A stretch of DNA of 64,000 nt. It comes from Acidobacteriota bacterium. Lineage in GTDB: Bacteria > Acidobacteriota > UBA890 > WLXD01. Numbering within the stretch: the stretch's first letter is position 1; every line of letters begins with the position of its first letter. The translations under genes were made by a program, and so were the position numbers. Location of the stretch: NCBI GenBank assembly GCA_965248695.1, contig CBDFKD010000002.1:5152001-5216000 (forward strand), given 5' to 3'. Of the stretch, positions 11,525 to 51,491 are shown piece after piece. Under the pieces are notes generated by a model. The model did no database searches. It was not told where the DNA came from and saw nothing but the letters and a program-made list of their open reading frames with translations.

Positions 11525-12928
11525 GAGATATAACCGGAAGTTGTGGATGGGAGGAAAAAGAAAGGCGGCGTAACCTTCGCTGGGATCATCAACAACCAGC
11601 AGCCGGCTGTGGAGGCCGGGAAGGAGACGCCACTCGTGCTCAAGATTATCGGTGGATCGGACGCGGAGGAAGGACAGCTGACACTGGACGTCGATGAGCT
11701 CGCCCGGCAGGGCGCGCTGCAGATGCTGGCAACAGCACTGGAGTGGGAGGTTCAGGAGTATATCCAGAGCCACGCCGGGCAACTGGATGAAGCCGGCCGT
11801 CGGCAAGTGGTACGCAACGGTCGGGCTCGCGCACGCAAGATCACGTTGGGGTGCGGGACGGTGCAAGTAGCCGCGCCACGGGTCAACGACAAGCGGCTCG
11901 ACGAGCAGGGACTGAGGCAGCGGTTCAGCAGTCGGATCCTGCCGCCCTACATGCGGCGCTCGCCGAAGGTGGCGGAGGTGCTGCCGGTGCTGTACCTGCG
12001 GGGCCTGTCGACGGGCGACTTCAAGGAGGCGCTGCCGATCTTACTGGGACAGGAAGCCAGCGGGCTGTCGGCATCGGCGATCTGCCGGCTGACGAACGCC
12101 TGGAGCACGGAGTACGAGGCATTCCGGAAGCTGGATCTGTCCACCAAGCAGTACGTATACGTGTGGGCGGACGGTGTGCACTTCAACATTCGACTCGAGG
12201 ATGATCGGCTGTGCACGCTGGTGATCCTGGGCGTTTTGCCGGACGGAACCAAGGAGCTCATCGCGGTCGAGGACGGGTATCGAGAGAGCACCGAGAGCTG
12301 GGCGTTCGTGCTCCGGGAGCTGAAGCGTCGAGGCATGCGGGCGCCGCTCGTGGCAGTGGGTGATGGGGCGCTGGGGTTCTGGGCGGCGGTGCGGGATGTA
12401 TGGCCCCAGACTCGAGAGCAACGATGCTGGGTGCATCGGCTTGGCAACGTGCTCGACAAGCTACCGAGGCGGCTGCAGGCCAAAGCCAAGCGCGCGCTGC
12501 ACGAGATCATCGGTGCGCCAACGCGCGAGGATGCTCAGGAGGGCATGGCGCGGTTCGCAGCCGACTACGGCGCCAAGTACTCCAAGGCCGTGGCGTCGTT
12601 GCAACGCGACTCCGACAAGCTGCTGACGTTCTACGACTTCCCCGCCGACCACTGGGTTCATCTGCGCACGGCCAACCCGATCGAGTCGGCGTTCGCCACC
12701 GTACGCCTGAGACAACGCGTCACCAAGGGCGCCGGCTCACGCACCAAGGCGCTGACGATGGCATTCAAGCTCCTGGAGATGGCACAGCAACGATGGCGCC
12801 GCATCAACGCTCCTCACCTCACTGCCCTCGTACTCGAGGGCGCCACATTCGTCGATGGAGTTCACCTGATCGCTAGCGAAGACGCCGCCTGAACAAATCC
12901 ACCGATCCACAACATTTGCAAATAACTC
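11525..12928 (+). mobile_element. IS256-family insertion sequence (1404 bp)
   Basis: 24-bp imperfect terminal IRs (17/24; GAG.TAT...GTTGTGGAT) and 9-bp target duplication GTGTCGACT at 11516-11524 and 12929-12937. Confidence 0.92.
11636..12892 (+). CDS. IS256/Mutator-family DDE transposase
   Basis: LYLRGLSTGDF, WADG, GDGALGFW, QRCWVH, TANPIES motifs; GTG start after AAGGAG. Confidence 0.93.
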   Translation: MLKIIGGSDAEEGQLTLDVDELARQGALQMLATALEWEVQEYIQSHAGQLDEAGRRQVVRNGRARARKITLGCGTVQVAAPRVNDKRLDEQGLRQRFSSRILPPYMRRSPKVAEVLPVLYLRGLSTGDFKEALPILLGQEASGLSASAICRLTNAWSTEYEAFRKLDLSTKQYVYVWADGVHFNIRLEDDRLCTLVILGVLPDGTKELIAVEDGYRESTESWAFVLRELKRRGMRAPLVAVGDGALGFWAAVRDVWPQTREQRCWVHRLGNVLDKLPRRLQAKAKRALHEIIGAPTREDAQEGMARFAADYGAKYSKAVASLQRDSDKLLTFYDFPADHWVHLRTANPIESAFATVRLRQRVTKGAGSRTKALTMAFKLLEMAQQRWRRINAPHLTALVLEGATFVDGVHLIASEDAA

Positions 12929-36804: not shown

Positions 36805-36987
36805 CAACTTACAGGCGACCCTCTTGTGGGGCTAATTCTGTTCTTTCCGGTCTATTTCGGGGTGTTTCCCGGGTTTCCTGGTACAAAAGTGGTATCGGGG
36901 TGCCGGCGCTCGCGCAGCACAGGAGGGTAGCGTGCGGGGCGAGGCGATGTGGCGGCTCGAAGAACTGCTGAGGCTCGGGAGAGCGGC

Positions 36988-37992
36988 ATGAGGCACTTCC
37001 GGCTGATCTGTGCCGACGTGCTGGAGGGCCTCGCCCGGTTACCCGACGAATCGGTCCACTGCGTGATAACGAGTCCGCCGTATTGGAGGCTGCGCGACTA
37101 CGGTACCGACGGCCAGCTCGGGCTGGAGGCCACGCCCGAAGAGTACGTGGAGACCATGACGGGCGTGTTCCGCGAGGTGCGCCGTGTGCTGCGCTCTGAC
37201 GGCACGCTGTGGCTGAACATGGGCGACTGCTACGCGAGCGGCGGGTACGGGGCACGAGATCCCGAGAGGTGGCCGGAGCAGAGCCGAAACAACCATATGC
37301 GGCACGCCAGGGCACCAAGCGGCGGCCTCAAGCCCAAGGATCTCGTCGGCATACCTTGGCGGGTCGCCTTAGCGCTACAGGCGGATGGCTGGTGGCTGCG
37401 AAGCGACATCATCTGGGCCAAGTCGCCACCGATGCCGGAATCGGTCAAGGACCGCCCCACGAAAGCGCACGAGTACGTCTTCCTGCTGTCGAAGTCCGCT
37501 CGCTACTGCTACGACGCAGATGCGGTTCGAACGCCCTATCGCCCTGCGACGCGGAGCGATTTGGTTGATGGCAGGTGGCGAAAATCCAACATCTCTGGGT
37601 GGGCAAATTCGCCGAACTTTCACGGGGCCAATCCGACTAGTAGGCCGCAGCGCCCTTGTCACCGCGGCGGCAAAGTCAAGCAAGGTGCGAACCTGCGCTC
37701 GGTCTGGACCATCTCGAATAGCGGCAAAGATGCGTTTCCCGAAGCGCACTTCGCAACCTTCCCGACCAAGCTCGTGGAGCCGTGTGTGCTGGCCGGCTGC
37801 CCCGAAGGCGGTGTCGTGCTTGACCCCTTCTGCGGCTCAGGCACCACGGGCGTCGTCGCACTCCGCGCAGACCGGCGCTTCGTGGGTATCGAGCTCAATG
37901 AGCAGTACGTGGAGATGGCGCGCCGCAGGATCGGAGATGACGCGCCGCTGCTGAACCGCGAGGACCCGATGCTCCTGGATCTAGCGGCATGA
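36988..37992 (+). CDS. Phage N4/N6 DNA methyltransferase (beta class)
   Basis: TSPPY catalytic motif, HFATFP, DPFCGSGTT SAM motif. Confidence 0.92.
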   Translation: MRHFRLICADVLEGLARLPDESVHCVITSPPYWRLRDYGTDGQLGLEATPEEYVETMTGVFREVRRVLRSDGTLWLNMGDCYASGGYGARDPERWPEQSRNNHMRHARAPSGGLKPKDLVGIPWRVALALQADGWWLRSDIIWAKSPPMPESVKDRPTKAHEYVFLLSKSARYCYDADAVRTPYRPATRSDLVDGRWRKSNISGWANSPNFHGANPTSRPQRPCHRGGKVKQGANLRSVWTISNSGKDAFPEAHFATFPTKLVEPCVLAGCPEGGVVLDPFCGSGTTGVVALRADRRFVGIELNEQYVEMARRRIGDDAPLLNREDPMLLDLAA

Positions 37993-38312
37993 TCAGCTTC
38001 GAGTCCCCCGCGATCCCCGACGTTGAAGGCGTGGACATCGCCCCGGAGCGCGCACTTGCCGCTGCGGTGATCCGTCGGGCGATTGTCGACCTGGGCATGG
38101 TGGCAACGTGGCGTGATCGAACCGAGCGGCCCGCTTGCACGTGCAAGAGGCTACGGGAGATCGGCCCCGAATCAGACCTGGTTGCGTGGTTGTCGCACCC
38201 GGAGGAGTTGCGCCCCTGCTCGCTGGGCTGGTGGTGTCAGTACATCGGTGCTGACCCGGTGGCGCTCACCGAACAACTGCGTCATCGAGGGCTCTTGGAG
38301 GCAGCGGCATGA
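37989..38312 (+). CDS. Phage hypothetical protein
   Basis: ATGA-coupled on both sides; ERAL..AVI..AI.D and SL.W.C...G.DP pattern. Confidence 0.6.
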   Translation: MISFESPAIPDVEGVDIAPERALAAAVIRRAIVDLGMVATWRDRTERPACTCKRLREIGPESDLVAWLSHPEELRPCSLGWWCQYIGADPVALTEQLRHRGLLEAAA

Positions 38313-39556
38313 CTCCAACGCCCCGCCGGATCGAGGATCTGCAGCCGGCGCCCTACAACCCGCGCACTATCGATGCCCCCTCGCTGGAGGCGCTGAAGGC
38401 ATCGCTGGGTACCTTCGGCGACCTCTCAGGTATCACCTTCAACGAGCGCACCGGGCACCTCGTTACGGGCCACCAGCGCGTGCGTGTGCTACGCGAACAG
38501 CACGGCGAGTCAGCGCGCATCCGTCACGCCGGCAAGGAAGCGTACCTACACGTGGGCTCCGAGCGGTTCCGGTTGCGCGTCGTGAACTGGGACGAGGAGA
38601 CGGAGCGCGCCGCGAACATCGCCGCCAACTCGCCCCTGCTCGCAGGCATCTTCACGGACGATCTACCCGACCTGGTGGCGCTGGCCCAAGAGGAGTTGCC
38701 GGAGCTGACCGATGCGCTCCGATTCGATGATCTGCTGGAAACGCTCGACATGGGACCGGAGCCCATCGAACTGCAAGATGACGAGGTGCCAGAGCCACCA
38801 GCCAACCCGGTGACCAAGCCCGGGGACGTATGGACACTGGGGGATCACCGGCTTATCTGTGGCGACGCGCAGGATCCTGGTGTCGTCGCCGCGCTGCTCG
38901 GCGATCATGTCCCGTTGCTCATGATCACCGATCCGCCCTACGGCGTGGAGTACGAGCCGGAATGGCGCGAACGTGATTTGGGAGAAAAACATGCGGGCCG
39001 GCGGTCCGGGATTGTACGCAACGACGATTGCGCCGACTGGCGAGAGGCGTTCACCCACTTTACCGGCGATGTCGCCTACGTATGGCACGCATCCTTGTTC
39101 GGTGCGGTCGTGCTCGAAGGGTTAGCGGCGGCGCGGTTGGGGCCTCGTGCCCAGATCATATGGGCCAAGCCGCAGGGCGTGATCTCACGTGGTCACTATC
39201 AATGGGCTCATGAGCCGGCCTGGTACGCGGTGCGCCGCGGCCGGAGCGCGCGCTGGAGCGGAGACCGGTGCCAAAGCACGCTCTGGCGCATCTCCAACCA
39301 GCTACGAGCCTCCGAAGGCAAGACGGACCACTCGACGCAAAAGCCGCTTGAGTGCATGGGCCGTCCGATGCGCAACCACGGCAAGGTCGGCGATGGGGTC
39401 TATGACCCGTTCGTGGGCTCGGGTACCACGCTCATCGCCGCCGAGCAGCTGGAGCGCCGCTGTTTCGCCATCGAGATCGACCCCGGCTACTGCGACGTAA
39501 CCGTCGAGCGCTGGGAAAACCTGACCGGCTCCAAGGCCAACCGGTGCACCCCGTGA
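38309..39556 (+). CDS. ParB-like N-terminal domain fused to DNA methyltransferase
   Basis: L.PAPYNPR and GHQR (ParB-like); TDPPY, HSTQKP, DPFVGSGTT. Confidence 0.88.
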   Translation: MTPTPRRIEDLQPAPYNPRTIDAPSLEALKASLGTFGDLSGITFNERTGHLVTGHQRVRVLREQHGESARIRHAGKEAYLHVGSERFRLRVVNWDEETERAANIAANSPLLAGIFTDDLPDLVALAQEELPELTDALRFDDLLETLDMGPEPIELQDDEVPEPPANPVTKPGDVWTLGDHRLICGDAQDPGVVAALLGDHVPLLMITDPPYGVEYEPEWRERDLGEKHAGRRSGIVRNDDCADWREAFTHFTGDVAYVWHASLFGAVVLEGLAAARLGPRAQIIWAKPQGVISRGHYQWAHEPAWYAVRRGRSARWSGDRCQSTLWRISNQLRASEGKTDHSTQKPLECMGRPMRNHGKVGDGVYDPFVGSGTTLIAAEQLERRCFAIEIDPGYCDVTVERWENLTGSKANRCTP

Positions 39557-39575: not shown

Positions 39576-40133
39576 ATGAACAACCGCTGCACGGCGATTA
39601 CCACGAGCACCGGAAAACGCTGCAAACGCAAGGCGTTACCCGGATCGGATCGGTGTGCCATCCCCTCGCATGCCGAAGATGTTGTCCAGGAATGTCCAGG
39701 AGCCAACGTGCGCGCGCGCGCGAGGGATTGGGAATCGGTCTACTTCAAAGCGTTAGAGCGTGGACACACCAAGGAGTCTGCTGCCGGTGTCGCTGGCGTC
39801 AGCGCGGCAACGCCCTACAAGCGCGTGCAGCGGGGAGACACGGCGTTCGCCGAGCAGGAGGACATTCACTACAACCGGGGCTTGGGGATGCTCATGGAGG
39901 TGGCGCGGCGACGCATCCTGGATCCCAAGCGCCCTGGAGATCTCGTGCTCAAGCATCTGCTATCGGTTCGTGGCGTCAGCGAGCGCGTGCAAGTGACGGG
40001 TGCCGACGATGGCCCGGTCATCACCAGGATCGAGCGGGTCATCGTGTATCCCGAGAATCGGAATGACGATGCAGACGCTGACCCTAAGGCTGATGCAGCC
40101 GCCGGCCCCGAGGCTCAGGACGATGCGGCATGA
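39576..40133 (+). CDS. Putative terminase small subunit
   Basis: Directly upstream of TerL; N-terminal Cys/His motif, HTH-like SAAGVAGVS, VTGADDGP tail. Confidence 0.6.
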   Translation: MNNRCTAITTSTGKRCKRKALPGSDRCAIPSHAEDVVQECPGANVRARARDWESVYFKALERGHTKESAAGVAGVSAATPYKRVQRGDTAFAEQEDIHYNRGLGMLMEVARRRILDPKRPGDLVLKHLLSVRGVSERVQVTGADDGPVITRIERVIVYPENRNDDADADPKADAAAGPEAQDDAA

Positions 40134-41355
40134 CGGGCAGCATGAAGGCACGCTTCAGATCGACACGCCGCACGGGTTTGAGCCGCTGCTCAAGGAGCGC
40201 GCACGGTACCGGGGTGCGTACGGTGGGCGAGGATCAGGCAAGTCATGGTTTTTCGCCTCGCTGCTGGTGCAACGATGCCTAGAGGATCCCAACACCCGAG
40301 CCCTGTGCGTGCGCGAGGTGCAACGGTCGCTGGATCAGTCCGTGAAGCGGCTGCTAGAGGACACCATCGGAAGGCTCGGGGTGTCAGAGCACTTCCGCAT
40401 CCTCAACACGCATATCGAGACCGGCGCCAACGGCCGGATCATCTTTCACGGGATGCAGAACCATACGGCCGAGTCGATCAAGTCGCTGGAGGGGTATGGG
40501 ATCGCGTGGGTGGAGGAGGCGCAGTCGCTATCAGCCAAGTCGCTAGAGCTGTTGCGCCCGACGGTGCGCGCCACCGGCTCGGAGCTGTGGTTTTCGTGGA
40601 ACCCCAACAGTCCCACCGACCCGGTGGATGCGCTGCTCCGCGGCACCAATGCACCGCCCGGCGCGGTGGTGGTGGAGGCCAACTACGCGGACAACCCCTG
40701 GTTCCCAGACGTGTTGGCCCAGGAGATGCAGTGGGACCGGGCGCGCGACCCGGACAAGTACGCCCACGTCTGGCTGGGGGAGTACGTGGGCCGGTCAGAA
40801 GCGCGAGTGTTCGACAACTGGAGCGTCGAGCAGTTCGCCGATCCGCCCGAAGGCACAGCGTTGTACTTCGGAGCCGACTGGGGTTTCTCAGTCGACCCGA
40901 CGGTGCTGGTGCGCTGCTGGATCGATGGGCGGAAGTTGTACGTGGATCGGGAGGCGTACCAAGTGGGCTGCGAGATCGACCGCACGGCGGAGCTATTCGA
41001 CTCCATCGACAACGGCCAGGCACGCGCCTGGCCGATCATCGCCGATTCCGCTCGTCCGGAGACGATCGCGTATCTGCAGCGACACGGGTACCCGCGCATC
41101 GCCAAAGCGCGCAAGGGGCCGGGAAGCGTGGAAGAAGGTATCGAGTTTCTGCGCAGCTACGACATCGTCGTGCATCCCCGCTGCCACCACATGATCCAGG
41201 AGTTGACGTTGTACAGCTACAAGACGGATCGGCGCACGGGACAAGTGATCCCGGTGCTACAGGACACCCACAACCACGTCATCGACGCGCTGCGCTACGC
41301 GGTGGAGCGGGTGCGGAGAGTCGCGGTGAGGCAGCGACAGGTGGCCTGGGGGTGA
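40123..41355 (+). CDS. terL: Terminase large subunit (PBSX family)
   Basis: YGGRGSGKS Walker A, WVEEA Walker B, SWNP, GADWG, ADSA, NHVIDALRY. Confidence 0.93.
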   Translation: MRHDGQHEGTLQIDTPHGFEPLLKERARYRGAYGGRGSGKSWFFASLLVQRCLEDPNTRALCVREVQRSLDQSVKRLLEDTIGRLGVSEHFRILNTHIETGANGRIIFHGMQNHTAESIKSLEGYGIAWVEEAQSLSAKSLELLRPTVRATGSELWFSWNPNSPTDPVDALLRGTNAPPGAVVVEANYADNPWFPDVLAQEMQWDRARDPDKYAHVWLGEYVGRSEARVFDNWSVEQFADPPEGTALYFGADWGFSVDPTVLVRCWIDGRKLYVDREAYQVGCEIDRTAELFDSIDNGQARAWPIIADSARPETIAYLQRHGYPRIAKARKGPGSVEEGIEFLRSYDIVVHPRCHHMIQELTLYSYKTDRRTGQVIPVLQDTHNHVIDALRYAVERVRRVAVRQRQVAWG

Positions 41356-41761
41356 GGAGACGTGAGGAGACGCGCGCGCAGCAGCGAACCGATCTGCATT
41401 CGGTCGTTTCGTTGGTGCGCACGCCACCCCGAACCGGGGCGGCTCCCCGGAGCGATTTCATACAAGCACTCCAACGACCCTTGCATACCTTCCGAAGGGC
41501 AGCGTGGAGCCAACGTGCGGGTGGGACCGTGCAGGGCCACGACTGTCGCAGTAGGGACCGGGGGCGGATTGTTGTCTTCGACCCGAAGCCAGCCATACGG
41601 GGGCGTCCGCAAAAGCCACCTCCCCCACTAAGGACCAGGGGGAGTTGTCGGGTGTGCAAGTAGTAGTTAGAGGAACATATATCAGTAGATCTCGTCCGCT
41701 AGGTCCGGGGGGGGGGGGAAAGGCCCCCGGTATGCGCGAGAGCTGAAAAAGGGGTGGGACG

Positions 41762-43177
41762 ATGCCAGTAGATACCGCTTCCGATACGTATGAGGCGTTC
41801 GTCACCAAGTGGCAGCGGGTGCGTCATTGCTACGAAGGCTCTGACGCAGTCAAGGAGCAGGGGGCTGGATACCTGCCCCCGCTAGCGAGCCACGGACGCG
41901 AGCCAGCCAAGTACGAGGCTTACAAGCAACGAGCGCTGTTTTACAACGCCACCGGACGCACGGTGGATGGTTTGGCGGGACTGATCTTTCAGAAAGAGCC
42001 AACGCTTCTGCTGCCCGCAAGCATCCAGGATCACGATAGGGACGTGACGCTAGGGGGCGAGTCGGCCGAGACGTTCGCACTCCAAGCTACCCGCGAGGTG
42101 CTGCTGACGGGTCGCTACGGAATCCTGGTGGAGATGGGCTCCGAACAGGTAGCGGGTAAGCGACCCTACTGGTGTGGGTATCGGGCCGAGGACATCGTGT
42201 CGTGGCGCACGCAGCGTCTGGGTGGCGATGAGATCACTACACGGGTGGTGCTCAGAGAGGTAGCGCGGGAGCCCGATGAGCGAGACGAGTTCGTCACGCG
42301 GCAAATCGATCAGTACCGGGTGCTGCGGCTACGAGACGGGGCATATACGCAAACGGTGTATCGGAAAGCCTCGAAATCCTCCTCCAAGTACGAACCATGG
42401 ACACCGCCGGGGCAGCAGGAGCCGGAAGTGGTGGCGATACGGCGCGGCGAGGCGCTGCCGTTCATTCCCTTCGTGTTCGTGTCTCCAAACTCCACGTCGG
42501 CTCGGGTGGACAAGCCCCCCCTGCTGGACCTGGTGGATGTGAACCTGTCGCACTACCGGACGATGGCGGACCTAGAGCACGGGCGACACTTCACGGCACT
42601 GCCTACCCCGTGGGTAGCCGGGATCAAGGACGAGGAGTCAGGGCGGTTGGAGATCGGCTCGGGCACAGCGTGGATGCTGGAGCCCACCGGTAAGGCGGGG
42701 ATGCTGGAGTTCACCGGCCAGGGGTTAGGGGCGTTGGACAAGGCATCGGAGGAAAAGCGCCTCATGATGGCGACGCTGGGTGCGCGGTTGTTGGAAGAGC
42801 AGCCGCGAGCGGCGGAGACCGCCACGGCGGTAGGGATGCGTCACGCTGGGGCCCACGCCACGCTGCGAACGGTGGCGCAGGCGATCGAGAGTGCCCTGGG
42901 TCAGGCGTGGCGGTATCACGCCTGGTGGATGGGTACGGAAGCCAAGCCAAGCGACGTGGAGGTTGCCTACGAGCTGAACAAGGACTTCGTGGCGGTGCCG
43001 ATGAGGGCCGACATGTTGCGCTCCTTGGTGTTGGCGTTGCAGGCGGACGCGGTGTCGTTTGAGACCTTCTGGGCGGCGATGCAGAAGGGCGAGCTGGCGC
43101 GGCCGGGGGTGAGTGCGGAGGAGGAACAAGCGGAGATCGGGCGTCAGGGACCGGCGCTCGTGGGAGAGGTGGCGTGA
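41762..43177 (+). CDS. Portal protein (DUF4055-type)
   Basis: Position after TerL; YKQRALFYNATGRT, KPPLLDL, HY...AD.EHG.HFTALP, ETATA. Confidence 0.85.
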   Translation: MPVDTASDTYEAFVTKWQRVRHCYEGSDAVKEQGAGYLPPLASHGREPAKYEAYKQRALFYNATGRTVDGLAGLIFQKEPTLLLPASIQDHDRDVTLGGESAETFALQATREVLLTGRYGILVEMGSEQVAGKRPYWCGYRAEDIVSWRTQRLGGDEITTRVVLREVAREPDERDEFVTRQIDQYRVLRLRDGAYTQTVYRKASKSSSKYEPWTPPGQQEPEVVAIRRGEALPFIPFVFVSPNSTSARVDKPPLLDLVDVNLSHYRTMADLEHGRHFTALPTPWVAGIKDEESGRLEIGSGTAWMLEPTGKAGMLEFTGQGLGALDKASEEKRLMMATLGARLLEEQPRAAETATAVGMRHAGAHATLRTVAQAIESALGQAWRYHAWWMGTEAKPSDVEVAYELNKDFVAVPMRADMLRSLVLALQADAVSFETFWAAMQKGELARPGVSAEEEQAEIGRQGPALVGEVA

Positions 43178-44074: not shown

Positions 44075-44656
44075 ATGGCCACGACCAGCACTTCCTTCCG
44101 GTTCGACGCCACGCTCCCGGCAGCACAGCGCGCCGCTGCCCGCCATGCGGCACGGCTCGTCAAGGGAGTCTCAGAGGAGACCCGTCGGGGTATTCGTGCA
44201 GCCATCGTGCGCGCCATCCGCGAGGGGCAGCCTCCGTTCGAGGCGGCACGCGCGATCCAACCGATGATCGGACTGAACGCGCAACAGGTCCAAGCGGCGC
44301 TGAATTACCGCGCCGAGCTGATCGACCAGGGGCTGACGCTGCAGTTTGTCGACCGCAAGGTGGACCGCTACGTGCAGAAGAAGCTTCGGGAGCGAGCCCG
44401 AACGATCGCCCGCACCGAGATCATGAACGCGCTCAATGCGGGGCAGGAAGAATCCTGGCGTCAGGCGCAGCGGGCGGGGCTGTTGCCCAAGGGGCAGAAG
44501 AAAGTATGGATCGTCACGCCGGATGATCGGCTCTGCCCGATTTGTGAGCCGATGCGTGACGCCGTGGCGGAGGTTGGTAAGCCGTTTCCGATTCCGGGGC
44601 CACCGGCGCATCCTCGGTGCCGGTGCGCGGTGGGGATCGCTACAGACGGCCGCTAG
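44075..44656 (+). CDS. Head morphogenesis protein (SPP1 gp7 / Mu F-like), C-terminal part
   Basis: RARTIARTE, KKVW, CPIC and PPAHPRCRC motifs. Confidence 0.8.
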   Translation: MATTSTSFRFDATLPAAQRAAARHAARLVKGVSEETRRGIRAAIVRAIREGQPPFEAARAIQPMIGLNAQQVQAALNYRAELIDQGLTLQFVDRKVDRYVQKKLRERARTIARTEIMNALNAGQEESWRQAQRAGLLPKGQKKVWIVTPDDRLCPICEPMRDAVAEVGKPFPIPGPPAHPRCRCAVGIATDGR

Positions 44657-44800
44657 AGCACGTTAATCGCGTGTAGCACGCAGTCTCCCCTGATACCACC
44701 AGATCGGGGAGGAGAAACGATCTTCGCCACAGCAGCAATCTCCATAGCGAAGACATAGCTATAGAAGAACAAAGTTAGTCACTTTTGCGCAAGGGGGGTG

Positions 44801-44831
44801 TTGACACCGCAACCAGGATCGTCGTATTGAT
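44801..44831 (+). promoter_or_regulatory. Putative sigma70-type promoter for scaffold/capsid operon
   Basis: Perfect TTGACA at 44801-44806 after an AT-rich tract; weak -10 (TATTGA). Confidence 0.4.
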
Positions 44832-44904
44832 TCAAGGAGACGGATTCAGACGCAACGGACCGTAGCCGGGGGGCCACGGTCGGTCGCGCTGACAGGGTGG
44901 GAGC

Positions 44905-45666
44905 ATGCAAGTCGTCGTTGAAGATCTGGGTGCCGTTGCCGAAGCACTTCGCGACGAGTACGTGGAGCGTGACGGTAAGTACGTACTGAAGCTCGAAGGC
45001 GATGTGCCGGGGATGGTGGTGGCCTCGGAGCTGGAGGAGCAGAAGAAGGCCACGGCGCATTTCCGGGATAGCAACGTTGGTCTGAACAGCAAGATCGGTG
45101 ATTTGACCACGAGGCTCGATGAGATCTCCGGTCTTGAGGACAAGTACACGAGCGCCGTCACGGAGCTTGAGACGTTGAAGAAGACGGCGCCCAAGAAGGA
45201 CGCGGAGATGCAAGCGATCCAGGCGCAGCTAGAGTCATTGGCAAAAAAGCTCGATGAGTCCAATGCGCGCGAGGTGGCGGCACGGCAGCAAGCGGCACGG
45301 AAGGATCTTGAGTCGCAGCTGCGAACCGTGGGATCCAAGCTCGGAGTACGTGACGAGGCGTGGGAAGACTTTTTGTCTCGTGGAACAGCGGTCTTCCAGC
45401 TGACCGAAGAGGACGGCAAGGTCGTTGCCAAGCGTGGCGAGGAGCCGTTGTTTTCCGAAATCAACCCGGCGCTGCCGCTCACGATGCAAGAGTGGGGCGA
45501 GAGGCTACAGCGACAAGCGGCGCATCTGTTCAAGGAATCCACCGGAGGTGGAGCACGCCCGAGCGATACGAGCGGTTCCACAACGGGCATGGCACGTATG
45601 GTTTCGGAAGATCAGTTCGGGGGGAGCTTGGAGGACATTGCGGCCGGCAAGGCCGTAGTACAGTAG
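44905..45666 (+). CDS. Head scaffolding protein
   Basis: Before capsid; Y.E.DGKYVL, long coiled coil, HLFKESTGGGA tail. Confidence 0.78.
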   Translation: MQVVVEDLGAVAEALRDEYVERDGKYVLKLEGDVPGMVVASELEEQKKATAHFRDSNVGLNSKIGDLTTRLDEISGLEDKYTSAVTELETLKKTAPKKDAEMQAIQAQLESLAKKLDESNAREVAARQQAARKDLESQLRTVGSKLGVRDEAWEDFLSRGTAVFQLTEEDGKVVAKRGEEPLFSEINPALPLTMQEWGERLQRQAAHLFKESTGGGARPSDTSGSTTGMARMVSEDQFGGSLEDIAAGKAVVQ

Positions 45667-45680
45667 AGGACAGCAGTACC

Positions 45681-45967
45681 GAGCGTGACGTAGCACGCCA
45701 TTAGGCTACGGCGGCTAACAGGGTCTCTTTAGATCCAGGGGGCCGCGCCCCGGTGGGGACGAATCGGAAGTAACCGAGCGTGACGCGGTGCGGTACGAAG
45801 CCGCGGCGGCTGGTGGATCTTGAAGGATCCAAGGGCCGTGCCCCGGTGGGGACGAATTCGGTAGTACTAAGACATATTCTGAGAGCGTGACGTGGCACGC
45901 CATTAGGTCACGGCGGCTAACAGGGTCTCTTCAGATCCAGGGGGCCGCGCCCCGGTGGGGACGAATC
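45681..45967 (+). ncRNA. Three tandem ~85-nt structured units in the capsid gene leader (candidate cis-regulatory RNA)
   Basis: Units 45681-45765, 45776-45857 and 45883-45967 share GAGCGTGACG...CGGCGGCT...GATCCA.GGGCCG.GCCCCGGTGGGGACGAAT with pairing-preserving substitutions. Confidence 0.7.
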
Positions 45968-45999
45968 CGCAACTTCTTTTGTGGAGGAGTGCCCCGACA

Positions 46000-47115
46000 G
46001 TGGCCAATACCAACACCACCACGCATATCGTTGACCGTCTGTTGGCACAGGGTCTGTTGGCTCTGCGCGAGATGGTGGTCATGCCGCGGTTCGTCAACCG
46101 CGCCTACGAAAACGTTCCGGGCGATCAGTACTCGACGATCGATGTACCGATCCCCTCGGCGATCGCCGCAACCGCGGTAACGCCTTCCAACACGCCGCCC
46201 GACGATGCCGGGATCGCGCCGACGAAGGTGTCGCTCGTACTGGATCAGTGGTACGAGGCGCCGTTTTTCCTCAACGACAAGGAAATGCTGGAGGTGCAGT
46301 CGGGAACGATCCCGATGCAAGCCTCCGAGGCGATCAAGGCGCTGGCGAACAACATCGACAACGCCATCCTTGCCAAGTACAAGGACATCTACGGGTACGC
46401 CGGCACGGCGGGCACCACGCCGTTTACGAGCGACCTGTCGGCGTTCGTGAACGCCCGCAAGGTGCTCAACGAACAGCTCGCGCCACTGGATCCACGCTTT
46501 TGCGTGATCGATCCGGATGCAGAGGCGAACGCGCTGAACCTGCGCGCCTTCCAGGACGCCAGTTACCGGGGTGACCGTCAGGGTATCTTGCGTGGTGAGA
46601 TCGGCGAGAAGCTCGGCTCCATGTGGGCGATGGACCAGAACGTTCCAACGCATACCACGGGCGGCGGCTCAGGCTGGCTGGTGAACCAGTCGGACCATGT
46701 GGTGGGCAACGGAACCGTGACGATCGATACCGGCTCGGGCGATCCCGCCGAGGGCGACATCTTCACGGTGGCCGGTGACACGCAGACCTACGTCGTGGAG
46801 GCCTACGGGAGCAACGTCATCACCTACGCACCGGCGTCGAAGGTTGCCTGGGCCGACGATGCGGCGCTGACGTTCAAGGGCAGCCACACGGTGAACCTGG
46901 CGTTTCACCGTGACGCCTTCGCGTTGGCCATGCGGCCGTTCCAGGGAGCCGACCCGATGGGAGTCGGGACGTTCCGCGCGGCGGTCGACCCGGTATCGGG
47001 CTTGGCGCTGCGACTGGAAGTGTCGCGTCAGCACAAGAGGACTCGCTTCTCCTACGACTCCCTCTACGGTGTGCAGACGGTTCGCCCGGAGCTGGCGGTG
47101 CGCGTCGCAGGCTAA
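46000..47115 (+). CDS. Major capsid protein (P22 coat-like, HK97 fold)
   Basis: GTG start after GGAGGA; ALANNID, NLAFHRDAFALA.RP, D.LYG...RPELAVR. Confidence 0.88.
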   Translation: MANTNTTTHIVDRLLAQGLLALREMVVMPRFVNRAYENVPGDQYSTIDVPIPSAIAATAVTPSNTPPDDAGIAPTKVSLVLDQWYEAPFFLNDKEMLEVQSGTIPMQASEAIKALANNIDNAILAKYKDIYGYAGTAGTTPFTSDLSAFVNARKVLNEQLAPLDPRFCVIDPDAEANALNLRAFQDASYRGDRQGILRGEIGEKLGSMWAMDQNVPTHTTGGGSGWLVNQSDHVVGNGTVTIDTGSGDPAEGDIFTVAGDTQTYVVEAYGSNVITYAPASKVAWADDAALTFKGSHTVNLAFHRDAFALAMRPFQGADPMGVGTFRAAVDPVSGLALRLEVSRQHKRTRFSYDSLYGVQTVRPELAVRVAG

Positions 47116-47137
47116 TCGGCTGGGTCCACAATGATGA

Positions 47138-47174
47138 GGCTCGGTCGCGCTGGCTGCGTGCTCGCGACCGAGCC
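47138..47174 (+). terminator. Hairpin after capsid gene (stabiliser or weak terminator)
   Basis: 12-bp perfect stem GGCTCGGTCGCG / CGCGACCGAGCC; no U-tract. Confidence 0.45.
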
Positions 47175-47197
47175 CACACCCCCTAGGTGACAAAGCG

Positions 47198-47371
47198 ATG
47201 GCTGCAATACCGACTCAGAAAGTCCGTCGCAAAAGCGATGGGGCGGAGTGCGTGATCAATCGAGAAGAGTTCAACGAACACGACTACGAGGAGATAGCCA
47301 AGCCGAAGGCTAGAGGCGGTGGCAAGCCGAAGTCCAAGGCGCAGCCTACGAAAAGGCGCAAGGGGAACTGA
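47198..47371 (+). CDS. 57-aa basic phage protein (absent from ORF track)
   Basis: MAAIPTQKVRRKSDGAECVINREEF...KRRKGN; TGATG overlap with next gene. Confidence 0.7.
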   Translation: MAAIPTQKVRRKSDGAECVINREEFNEHDYEEIAKPKARGGGKPKSKAQPTKRRKGN

Positions 47372-47910
47372 TGGCGACCTCGGTACTGAATGCGACCGTC
47401 GGCGGGGCTTGGAGCAACACCTACGCCACGCTGGGGGAGGCCGAGCAGTACCACGAGGACCGGGTCGCGTCCGGTACGGCGTGGACAGCCACGAGCACCG
47501 AGGAGGATGCCAAGACCAAGGCGCTGTTGATGGCGACGCTGCTGCTGGACCGAGCCTTTGAGTGGAGCGGGCACGCGGTGGATCGGAACCAGGCGCTGCA
47601 ATGGCCCCGCACGGGGATGCTCAAGCCGACCGGGTTTGAGCACGTCGCCTCCACCGAGATCCCGGTGCAGATCAAGAACGCGCAGGCGGAATACGCCCGG
47701 CAACTGCTGGCCGATCTCGGCCGCACGGATGATTCCGATATCGAGACCAAAGGCATCACCAGGATCAAGGCAGGGCCGGTGGAGTTGGAGTTCAAAGACT
47801 CCGTGTTTGCCAAGGCGGTGCCGGACCTGGTGGTGCTGCTGCTCCCGGAGCACTGGTACTACGCGGTACGGGGCCGTGCCTCCGGTACGCGACAGCTGGT
47901 GAGGGCGTAG
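47371..47910 (+). CDS. Head-tail adaptor (DnaT-like annotated family)
   Basis: NTYAT..EA..Y, AL..AT..LD, QALQWPR, IP..IK.AQAE. Confidence 0.75.
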   Translation: MATSVLNATVGGAWSNTYATLGEAEQYHEDRVASGTAWTATSTEEDAKTKALLMATLLLDRAFEWSGHAVDRNQALQWPRTGMLKPTGFEHVASTEIPVQIKNAQAEYARQLLADLGRTDDSDIETKGITRIKAGPVELEFKDSVFAKAVPDLVVLLLPEHWYYAVRGRASGTRQLVRA

Positions 47911-51126: not shown

Positions 51127-51491
51127 TCCGGCTGTATCGCCACTTCGAGGGTATTGGTGATGAGCCGGTGCCCGAGGCGTGGTTCATCAGTCGGCTATGT
51201 GAGGAGTTTGGATGCACGCCACTGCAGGTGGTGGAGGATCTCGAAAACGACCCGGAGCGCTGGATGCTGCGCATCCTGCCGCTGCGGGCTTTGGCGCGCG
51301 CGTACCAAAGCTACAAGGCGGCTCAATCCAAGAAAGAACTTGGCAAGGCCATCCATCAAGACCCGTGGGTGCGGCGGGTCGTCGAGATCGACTTTGCCGA
51401 GAAGCGACGGCAGATAGAAGCCAACAAGCAAGGCGGCGACGAGGATGATTCCGATCGGGGTGCTCGAGGCGATCCTGCGGCTGCGGGATGA
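51114..51491 (+). CDS. gpT-like extension made by -1 programmed frameshift
   Basis: -1 frame open after G GGG GAA (51114-51120): SLVRLYRHF...RLCEEFGCTP. Confidence 0.68.
   Translation, partial: GGSLVRLYRHFEGIGDEPVPEAWFISRLCEEFGCTPLQVVEDLENDPERWMLRILPLRALARAYQSYKAAQSKKELGKAIHQDPWVRRVVEIDFAEKRRQIEANKQGGDEDDSDRGARGDPAAAG

Follow-up and report, generated by a model that had tools for sequence, protein, structure and literature searches.

In several described systems, a stable RNA structure of the coding strand separates two cistrons that must yield unequal amounts of product; examples are the RNase III sites of phage T7, the REP hairpins between malE and malF of E. coli, the hairpins of the puf operon, and the processing of papBA. 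Phage RNase III sites are folds that are specifically recognised. Here, we describe a structured RNA array in a similar position: a 333-nucleotide (nt) gap between the head scaffolding protein gene and the major capsid protein gene of a prophage, in an Acidobacteriota bacterium (assembly GCA_965248695.1, contig CBDFKD010000002.1). The window that we analysed is the whole 64,000-nt stretch of this contig from position 5,152,001 to 5,216,000, and all coordinates are those of the window. The gap contains three direct units of about 89 nt each, with invariant 5' and 3' blocks common to all. The array is a real, well-folded, non-coding triple repeat, consists of three paralogous copies in one genome, and is new to Rfam; we tentatively propose that it serves the late mRNA as an intercistronic processing and stability module. 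Like the known intercistronic stabilisers, it is a stable coding-strand structure between two cistrons of what appears to be one operon, and its paralogous copies share sequence. Unlike those stabilisers, which are single or paired hairpins, its units are predicted four-helix junctions with an invariant core, three in a row, and their function here is a prediction.

Other described RNAs share some of these properties. Twister-sister, hammerhead, and hatchet are small self-cleaving ribozymes that are built on multi-helix junctions and found in prophages, and the array resembles them in unit size (about 60-90 nt for the ribozymes), in its junction, in its conserved core with variable stems, in its prophage location, and in the presence of several close copies; unlike them, it has no match to their Rfam models at E<=10. 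Tandem riboswitch aptamers, such as those for glycine, are likewise repeated homologous domains in a 5' untranslated region, but the array comprises three such domains, precedes a structural phage gene, shows no recognisable expression platform, and matches no family. ToxI-type antitoxin repeats are about 35 nt long and almost identical to one another, and downstream of them come a terminator and the gene for an endoribonuclease toxin. The array shares with them the arrangement of direct tandem RNA repeats upstream of a protein gene: its units are about 89 nt long and diverged, and we rejected a type III toxin-antitoxin (ToxIN-like) system because the gene downstream encodes the major capsid protein and no toxin. 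Finally, a recent report describes arrays of non-coding RNAs associated with UG27 reverse transcriptases in prophages, whose units conserve structure and diverge in sequence (bioRxiv 10.64898/2026.09.22.753630). In that report, UG27 arrays adjoin the reverse transcriptase and two accessory genes, whereas the array studied here lies between head genes. We rejected a retron, DGR, or UG27 array, since none of the 39 window proteins scanned has a reverse-transcriptase domain (Pfam) and the flanking genes encode scaffold and capsid proteins. The differences between units 1 and 3 (A>G, C>T, T>C, T>C) show no adenine specificity.

The repeat array and its predicted fold

The three units are set in the gap with a short leader and two A+T-rich linkers, amid a region of 62-65% G+C (Table 1). 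A repeat search reports units 1 and 3 as two 85-nt copies of 95% identity that lie 202 nt apart, the 5' part (39 nt) as a three-copy family with 72% (unit 2) and 85% identity to unit 1, and the 3' part (28 nt) as a three-copy family of 89-100% identity. An earlier note on this DNA, made from the sequence alone, had claimed a 333-nt gap with three tandem units, the first and third near-identical and the second diverged, all ending in an invariant block; coordinates (45667-45999) and identities agree with it, and the invariant block is the 18-nt GCCCCGGTGGGGACGAAT, exact in all three units. No further occurrence of this block with up to three mismatches exists in the 64 kb, where 0.10 would be expected. 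The 5' block, GAGCGTGACG, is unremarkable alone, with 17 matches at up to one mismatch in the window against 13.4 expected. The motif AGTA(A)C precedes all three units, and alignment of the three leaders shows that the linker before unit 3 carries an insert of about 14 nt that the other two leaders lack. We built two covariance models, R1 and R2, from the array units; with filters off, R2 finds only the three units in the 64 kb (scores in Table 1), and its next match, at 17.0 bits and E 0.086, lies inside the tape-measure gene. Tandem Repeats Finder does not report the array (none of its 35 rows overlaps it), probably because unit 2 is diverged and the units are unevenly spaced (95 and 107 nt).

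Modelling indicates that each unit is best read as one four-way junction (helices P1-P4) on the + strand, instead of as a row of hairpins. In unit 1, P1 comprises an outer CCGA/TCGG helix (45679-82/45764-67) and an inner CGT/ACG helix (45684-86/45759-61), followed by a 2-nt GA linker and then P2, with 6 base pairs (bp) and a 10-nt loop (45689-94/45705-10). P3 has a 6-bp base (45711-16/45741-46), an internal loop, a 6-bp distal stem (45721-26/45731-36), and a tetraloop; one unpaired base separates it from P4, CCCC-GGT-GGGG (45748-51/45755-58), which adjoins the 3' strand of P1. When units 1 and 2 are folded alone, this junction is both the minimum free energy (MFE) structure and the centroid of each, at -41.5 kcal/mol for unit 1 (z -2.65; equalled by 2 of 200 shuffles) and -43.3 kcal/mol for unit 2 (z -2.71; 1 of 200). 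The multibranch folds that the earlier note had proposed for these two units, closed by CCGA/TCGG pairing, are these same structures. RNAalifold independently returns the same four-way-junction consensus from two alignments. Helix order and linkers are cloverleaf-like, with 2, 0, 1, and 0 nt between helices; a tRNA, tmRNA, or other cloverleaf was nonetheless rejected, as ARAGORN finds no gene in the window and P4 has a 3-nt loop. Kissing loops between the P3 tip of unit 2 and those of units 1 and 3, considered by eye, were also rejected, since they would use stem bases of 4-nt loops.

That pairing is kept despite sequence change between units, as had been claimed, is supported by a pair table made from coordinates, in which 85 of 87 cells across the three units hold standard pairs: 29/29 in unit 1, 29/29 in unit 2 (four of them G-U), and 27/29 in unit 3. 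Both failed pairs of unit 3 fall in outer P1, where they break two of the four pairs, and the core junction (45886-45963) is retained. Two pairs of P2 change on both sides in an ungapped alignment, pair 3 reading UA/CG/UA and pair 4 AU/GC/GC in units 1, 2, and 3; the basis for covariation is thus two unambiguous both-sided changes among three paralogous copies in one genome. Five pairs change on one side (P2-5, P2-6, P3 base-1, P3 distal-3, and P3 distal-6). In distal P3 the sequences singled out earlier, GGGTCT-CTTT-AGATCC in unit 1 and GGATCT-TGAA-GGATCC in unit 2, are both present and both pair, and the count of changes there depends on the register chosen for unit 2: the MAFFT register adds two both-sided changes, and the coordinate register gives one-sided changes only. 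A further proposed covariation, TTAG..CTAA in unit 1 against AGCC..GGCT in unit 2, fails, because the two lie in non-homologous alignment columns; these pairings also conflict with P2 and P3, two helices backed by both RNAalifold and the MFE folds. The cores of units 1 and 3 differ at four bases, three in P2, all pairing-neutral, and one in the P3 loop. Four random substitutions preserve all 25 core pairs and include a both-sided change in 0.5% of simulations with uniform substitution and 2.3% with transitions only; the pattern is suggestive, not conclusive.

The bases that are invariant even in the diverged unit 2 lie in the junction core (inner P1, the base of P3, and P4 with its 3' tail); variation occurs farther out, in the outer parts of P2 and P3. 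The earlier note had instead emphasised CGG(T/C)G motifs at hairpin tips. Its count of seven is right, but the motif is not enriched (3.1 expected; at least seven in 5.7% of 325-nt windows), and placement at tips holds for the three P4 loops and partly for the P2 arm of unit 2, not for the three CGGCG copies, which span the P2/P3 junction. We replace the reading as a series of separate hairpins, in which CGGNG loops would form a multivalent epitope, with one four-way junction per unit.

Nine of the 87 pair cells are G-U and would be A-C mismatches on the opposite strand, and the whole gap folds better on the + strand (-149.7 kcal/mol, z -3.3) than on the - strand (-124.8 kcal/mol, z -2.0); on these grounds we assign the RNA to the gene strand. 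A protein-coding gene or small open reading frame (ORF) is ruled out. All six frames of the gap contain stops, G+C is flat over the codon positions of the longest gap ORFs (0.62/0.62/0.62, against 0.63/0.46/0.83 in the capsid gene), gap ORFs of 62, 65, and 97 amino acids have no entry in the protein collection, and the 62- and 65-residue ORFs, on the minus strand, have no relatives at E<=10. The capsid gene itself starts at the GTG at 46000, and its 371-residue product is an entry in the public protein collection; a longer ORF from 45955 has no entry there, and when this extended form is used as the query, all 119 relatives among the matches listed, together with the protein itself, start at or near MANT and none reads into the element. 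Within 44500-47500 we find no promoter-like site and no excess of terminator-like matches (3, against a shuffle expectation of 2.3), one of which is a weak match 3' in unit 3 with a 5-pair stem (45955-45970) and a T-rich tail.

Unit 3 ends 13 nt before the Shine-Dalgarno (SD) sequence of the capsid gene, and its 3' tail can be drawn into a small hairpin. This hairpin (45966-45985) appears in all four MFE folds that contain the tail (four of five constructs), and the probability that the SD is unpaired in these constructs is 0.42-0.44. We consider sequestration of the SD by unit 3 in the manner of a riboswitch unconvincing, given these values and the fact that the alternative hairpin covers three of the seven SD bases.

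The history of the array can be read in part from its similarities. The last codons of the scaffold gene, CCGTAGTACAGTAG (45652-45666), resemble the linker after unit 2, CGGTAGTACTAAG (45858-45872). Either the duplication that produced unit 3 may have taken in the final codons of the scaffold gene, or the 3' end of that gene may overlie a degenerate fourth unit. This resemblance, together with the AGTA(A)C leaders and the 95% identity of units 1 and 3, suggests a recent duplication, about 202-206 nt long, atop an older pair formed by a unit 1-like copy and unit 2. The copy number of three may therefore be incidental, and the informative comparison is that of unit 2 with units 1 and 3.

Known RNA classes and related capsid loci

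A search of Rfam had been named beforehand as a check on novelty. None of the 4227 families of Rfam 15, which include riboswitches, ribozymes, small RNAs, and CRISPR repeats, reaches its gathering score anywhere in the window, and a search of 45500-46150 (651 nt) with permissive filters gives no match at E<=10. The central claim of the earlier note, a structured, non-coding, + strand RNA array in a head-gene operon that corresponds to no named motif, is upheld by these results. A CRISPR-like or guide-RNA array was rejected on the same search. Searches of the full-text literature yielded no account of a structured RNA between scaffold and capsid genes; the motifs of PMC5737381 are covered as far as they were deposited in Rfam.

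At the nucleotide level, blastn of 45000-47000 against phage records gives no match, and the array alone (E<=10) matches three phage and three plasmid records over 26-50 nt at E 0.3-4, which is chance level; these six matches lie inside coding genes or unannotated DNA. The capsid protein does have relatives, with best identities of 51.9% among phage records (84 records) and 38.8% among plasmid records (18 records). It is a singleton at 90% identity, with 2603 relatives at E<=1e-20, the best at 68%, on metagenome contigs. We compared ten capsid-relative loci from the phage and plasmid records. The gap between the upstream head gene and the capsid gene could be measured in eight of them and is 206, 29, 95, 77, 47, 121, 29, and 17 nt, making 333 nt the longest of nine; the other two loci are that of P106B, where the capsid gene and a small ORF overlap, and the unannotated one of the Gemmatirosa plasmid. 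R1, with filters off, detects no copy of the element in the ten loci, its best match (13.3 bits) being on the wrong strand and inside a capsid gene. Vibrio phage SSP002, among the closest cultured-phage relatives at 51% capsid identity, has no structured repeat in its 206-nt gap (L121, 1789-1994), where we see by eye a terminator-like hairpin with a T-run and then TTGACG...TATAAT; in the closest cultured-phage relatives, the capsid gene appears to have a promoter to itself. The R5C gap contains an unrelated long hairpin (z -3.2).

We also searched genome contigs with a pattern made of a 10-nt 5' block, a gap of 55-80, and a 9-nt 3' block, which is too permissive to be informative on absence. 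It returned at least 120 stretches, all chance-like among the matches listed, and none has the P3 base and P4 blocks in unit order and spacing. Among the matches listed, R1 scores at best 27.4 bits on 80 stretches (L001-L080), with P2 and P3 unformed and the match inside ORFs of more than 1000 amino acids, and R2 at best 23.2 bits on 40 stretches (L081-L120), against 87-119 for real units.

The prophage around the array

The first 36 kb or so of the window are bacterial chromosome, with PQQ dehydrogenases, Rieske oxygenases, ABC transporters, and an IS256-family (Mutator-type) transposase at 11543-12892, whose plasmid relatives are 64-66% identical among the long matches listed and span many phyla. 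The prophage follows, and its genes include two DNA methylases, an adaptor, neck and tail genes, and a tape-measure protein, in addition to the head genes in Table 1. The scaffold protein is an exact entry in the protein collection and forms a singleton cluster; its TAG stop codon (45664-45666) lies 12 nt upstream of unit 1. The hairpin downstream of the capsid gene may be either a 3' end protector of the capsid cistron or a weak terminator. The gap that holds it (47116-47197) folds at -38.5 kcal/mol (z -2.95; equalled by 2 of 200 shuffles).

Table 1. Features of the array and of the surrounding head genes, in window coordinates
Feature	Coordinates	Strand	Basis or remark
Large terminase	40000-41355		prophage
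Portal	41762-43177		prophage
Mu-F-like head protein	44075-44656		prophage
Head scaffolding protein gene, 253 amino acids	44905..45666	+	phrog_206, E 3.2e-19
Leader, 12 nt, ends AGTA, directly 5' of unit 1	45667..45678	+	sequence
Unit 1, predicted four-way junction	45679..45767	+	MFE = centroid; R2 111.7 bits
Linker AAGTAA, units 1-2	45768..45773	+	sequence; unpaired in single-unit folds
Unit 2, diverged copy, same predicted junction	45774..45861	+	MFE = centroid; R2 86.8 bits
Linker, 19 nt, A+T-rich, TAGTACTAAGACATATTCT, units 2-3	45862..45880	+	sequence; alignment of three leaders
Unit 3	45881..45969	+	95% identical to unit 1 over 85 nt; R2 104.7 bits
Small hairpin TCCGCAA/TTGTGGA	45966..45985	+	re-uses 3' tail of unit 3; covers first 3 nt of SD
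SD GGAGGAG of capsid gene	45983..45989	+	sequence; 10 nt upstream of GTG
Major capsid protein gene, 371 amino acids, P22-coat type	46000..47115	+	phrog_283, E 6.8e-73; Pfam P22_CoatProtein, E 1.9e-19
Perfect 12-bp G+C-rich hairpin	47138..47174	+	23 nt past capsid stop; without T-run

Some other parts of the prophage are of separate interest. The two N6/N4 DNA methyltransferase genes (36949-37992 and 38309-39556) lie on its left side and adjoin the terminase gene upstream. The terminase-portal gap (41356-41761) is unusually long at 406 nt and includes a run of 12 G (41707-41718) within a CCGGGGG...GGCCCCCGG hairpin; its + strand folds at -174.9 kcal/mol (z -1.27), and the ORFs there overlap and look spurious. 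The 248-nt gap upstream of the scaffold gene (44657-44904; G+C 0.56) has z-scores of -3.1 on the + strand and -4.25 on the - strand, and its first 144 nt alone are unexceptional (z -0.72). By eye, this gap contains a TCTCCCC...GGGGAGGAGA hairpin and the pair TTGACA, 18 nt, TATTGA, which fails the promoter rule of the scan. The 318-nt gap upstream of the tape-measure gene (51127-51444), the usual place of tail-chaperone frameshift products, folds well on the + strand (z -3.1).

Possible roles of the array

We propose, with a probability of roughly one in three (0.35), that the array is a module for the processing and stability of the late mRNA, acting between two of its cistrons. The proposal starts from the repeats, their predicted fold and strand, their non-coding nature, their position, and the hairpin that flanks the capsid gene, and it would add to these transcription of the head genes as an operon, cleavage, end protection, and an effect on dosage. 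The units would be cis-acting domains of the head-gene (late) transcript, each folding alone during transcription, at about -39 kcal/mol, into a G+C-rich junction. A host endoribonuclease would cut the short A+U-rich single-stranded linkers, most likely at the candidate target site formed by the 19-nt linker before unit 3. The upstream product, carrying the scaffold cistron, would end in units 1 and 2, which would block 3' exonucleases; the downstream product, carrying the capsid cistron, would begin with unit 3 and end in the 12-bp hairpin, with both ends protected. Capsid and scaffold mRNA levels would thereby be uncoupled, making an excess of capsid protein possible, and the tight folding may in addition prevent Rho from loading onto the 333-nt untranslated stretch. 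The invariance of the junction core suggests specific recognition of the fold, beyond mere stability. We count in favour of the processing module that relatives appear to show other solutions at the scaffold-capsid boundary, with the terminator- and promoter-like sequences of SSP002 and the hairpin of R5C.

Several observations weigh against this proposal. A generic stabiliser needs no invariant 18-nt block, no conserved junction, and no three copies, and a conserved core with a variable periphery is at least as consistent with specific recognition by a protein, by a ligand, or by the tertiary fold of the RNA itself. Unit 3, the presumed 5' protector of the capsid message, lacks the closing stem, and the junction is not its MFE structure (-33.3 kcal/mol for the junction against an MFE of -37.2 kcal/mol, a difference of 3.9). 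In the MFE fold of the whole gap, the units pair with one another through the self-complementary P4 blocks, CCCCGGTGGGG, and the modular fold therefore presumes co-transcriptional folding. Our search for homologs, a shallow one, found none in phage and plasmid records or in the ten relative loci. Finally, the triple arrangement may be a recent duplication of no significance.

Under a broader hypothesis, which we regard as speculative and somewhat less probable than the processing module, the head operons of tailed phages would contain an undescribed family of autonomous four-way-junction RNA modules, with these units as the first examples. The invariant core would act in a sequence-specific way, by cleaving itself as a new ribozyme class or by capturing a protein or small molecule with high affinity, and would thereby set the capsid:scaffold dosage. 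The array might also be a protein-binding operator, the main idea of the earlier note. In this case a protein of the phage (scaffold or capsid) or of the host would bind the junction core of each unit, and the avidity or cooperativity of three sites would tune capsid translation or mRNA fate. The clustering of invariant bases at the junction, with the outer parts of P2 and P3 free to vary, would suit such an operator, as would the closeness of the last unit to the SD and the ability of its tail to pair over the first three SD bases. The scaffolding protein of P22 provides a precedent, as it regulates its own synthesis post-transcriptionally; the message regulated there is the scaffold's own, however, whereas the array lies downstream of the scaffold gene. 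The SD is also only partly occluded, the 12 head and neck proteins scanned offer no candidate RNA-binding domain (PHROGs, Pfam), and conservation in relatives is not seen among the ten loci. We consider an operator unlikely, albeit worth keeping in view.

More doubtful still is that the array is a selfish or neutral repeat, either a REP- or MITE-like intergenic host element or a locally duplicated spacer, that came to lie in the prophage gap and has no phage-specific role except as a harmless cluster of stable hairpins. The near-identity of units 1 and 3 and the recurrence after unit 2 of the AGTAC leader and the scaffold's last codons, as from an unequal crossover of about 202-206 nt, are what such an origin would leave, and the eight capsid relatives manage with gaps of just 17-206 nt and no homolog was found in phage or plasmid records. 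Conversely, pairing is kept through five P2 stem substitutions between units 1 and 2 while the P2 loop has diverged, and short conserved blocks are interleaved with diverged ones, unlike gene-conversion tracts. All copies are direct, whereas REP clusters alternate. The filters-off search found three copies in 64 kb and none in the 36 kb or so of host DNA, a result that excludes only abundances of about 500 or more per 5.76 Mb.

The remaining explanations are improbable. Stable RNAs of about 90 nt might be cut from the late transcript to act in trans, possibly as decoys that titrate a host RNA-binding or defence protein; the folds are compact, autonomous, and very stable, with short single-stranded linkers between them, and multi-copy arrays are typical of sponge RNAs, but we found no promoter or terminator belonging to the array in the scanned region, no known small RNA family matches in Rfam, and the loops, where a conserved single-stranded seed would be exposed, are the variable parts. 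A new class of self-cleaving ribozyme that would sever the scaffold cistron from the capsid cistron in the late transcript is about equally improbable: a four-way junction with a conserved core and variable peripheral helices, repeated in tandem within a prophage, recalls several small ribozyme classes, but Rfam, ribozymes included, has no match at E<=10, new classes are rare, no cleavage site was identified, and the locus is the only one known. Least probable of all are tandem ligand-sensing, riboswitch-like aptamers controlling capsid translation, which would fit the conserved junction core, the 3' tail that the last unit shares with the hairpin touching the SD, and the tandem aptamers of other riboswitch classes, but are opposed by the lack of an expression platform in units 1 and 2, an SD that is not convincingly sequestered, capsid genes being atypical riboswitch targets, and the absence of an Rfam match.

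To our knowledge, how tailed phages fix the scaffold:capsid ratio when one late transcript encodes both proteins is largely understood for a few model phages only. A repeated modular RNA fold at the scaffold-capsid boundary is a concrete, deletable candidate for such dosage control. If confined to this prophage, the array would be a local curiosity; if it has relatives at some of the related capsid loci in metagenomes, of which there are more than 2600, it would represent a new phage RNA family.

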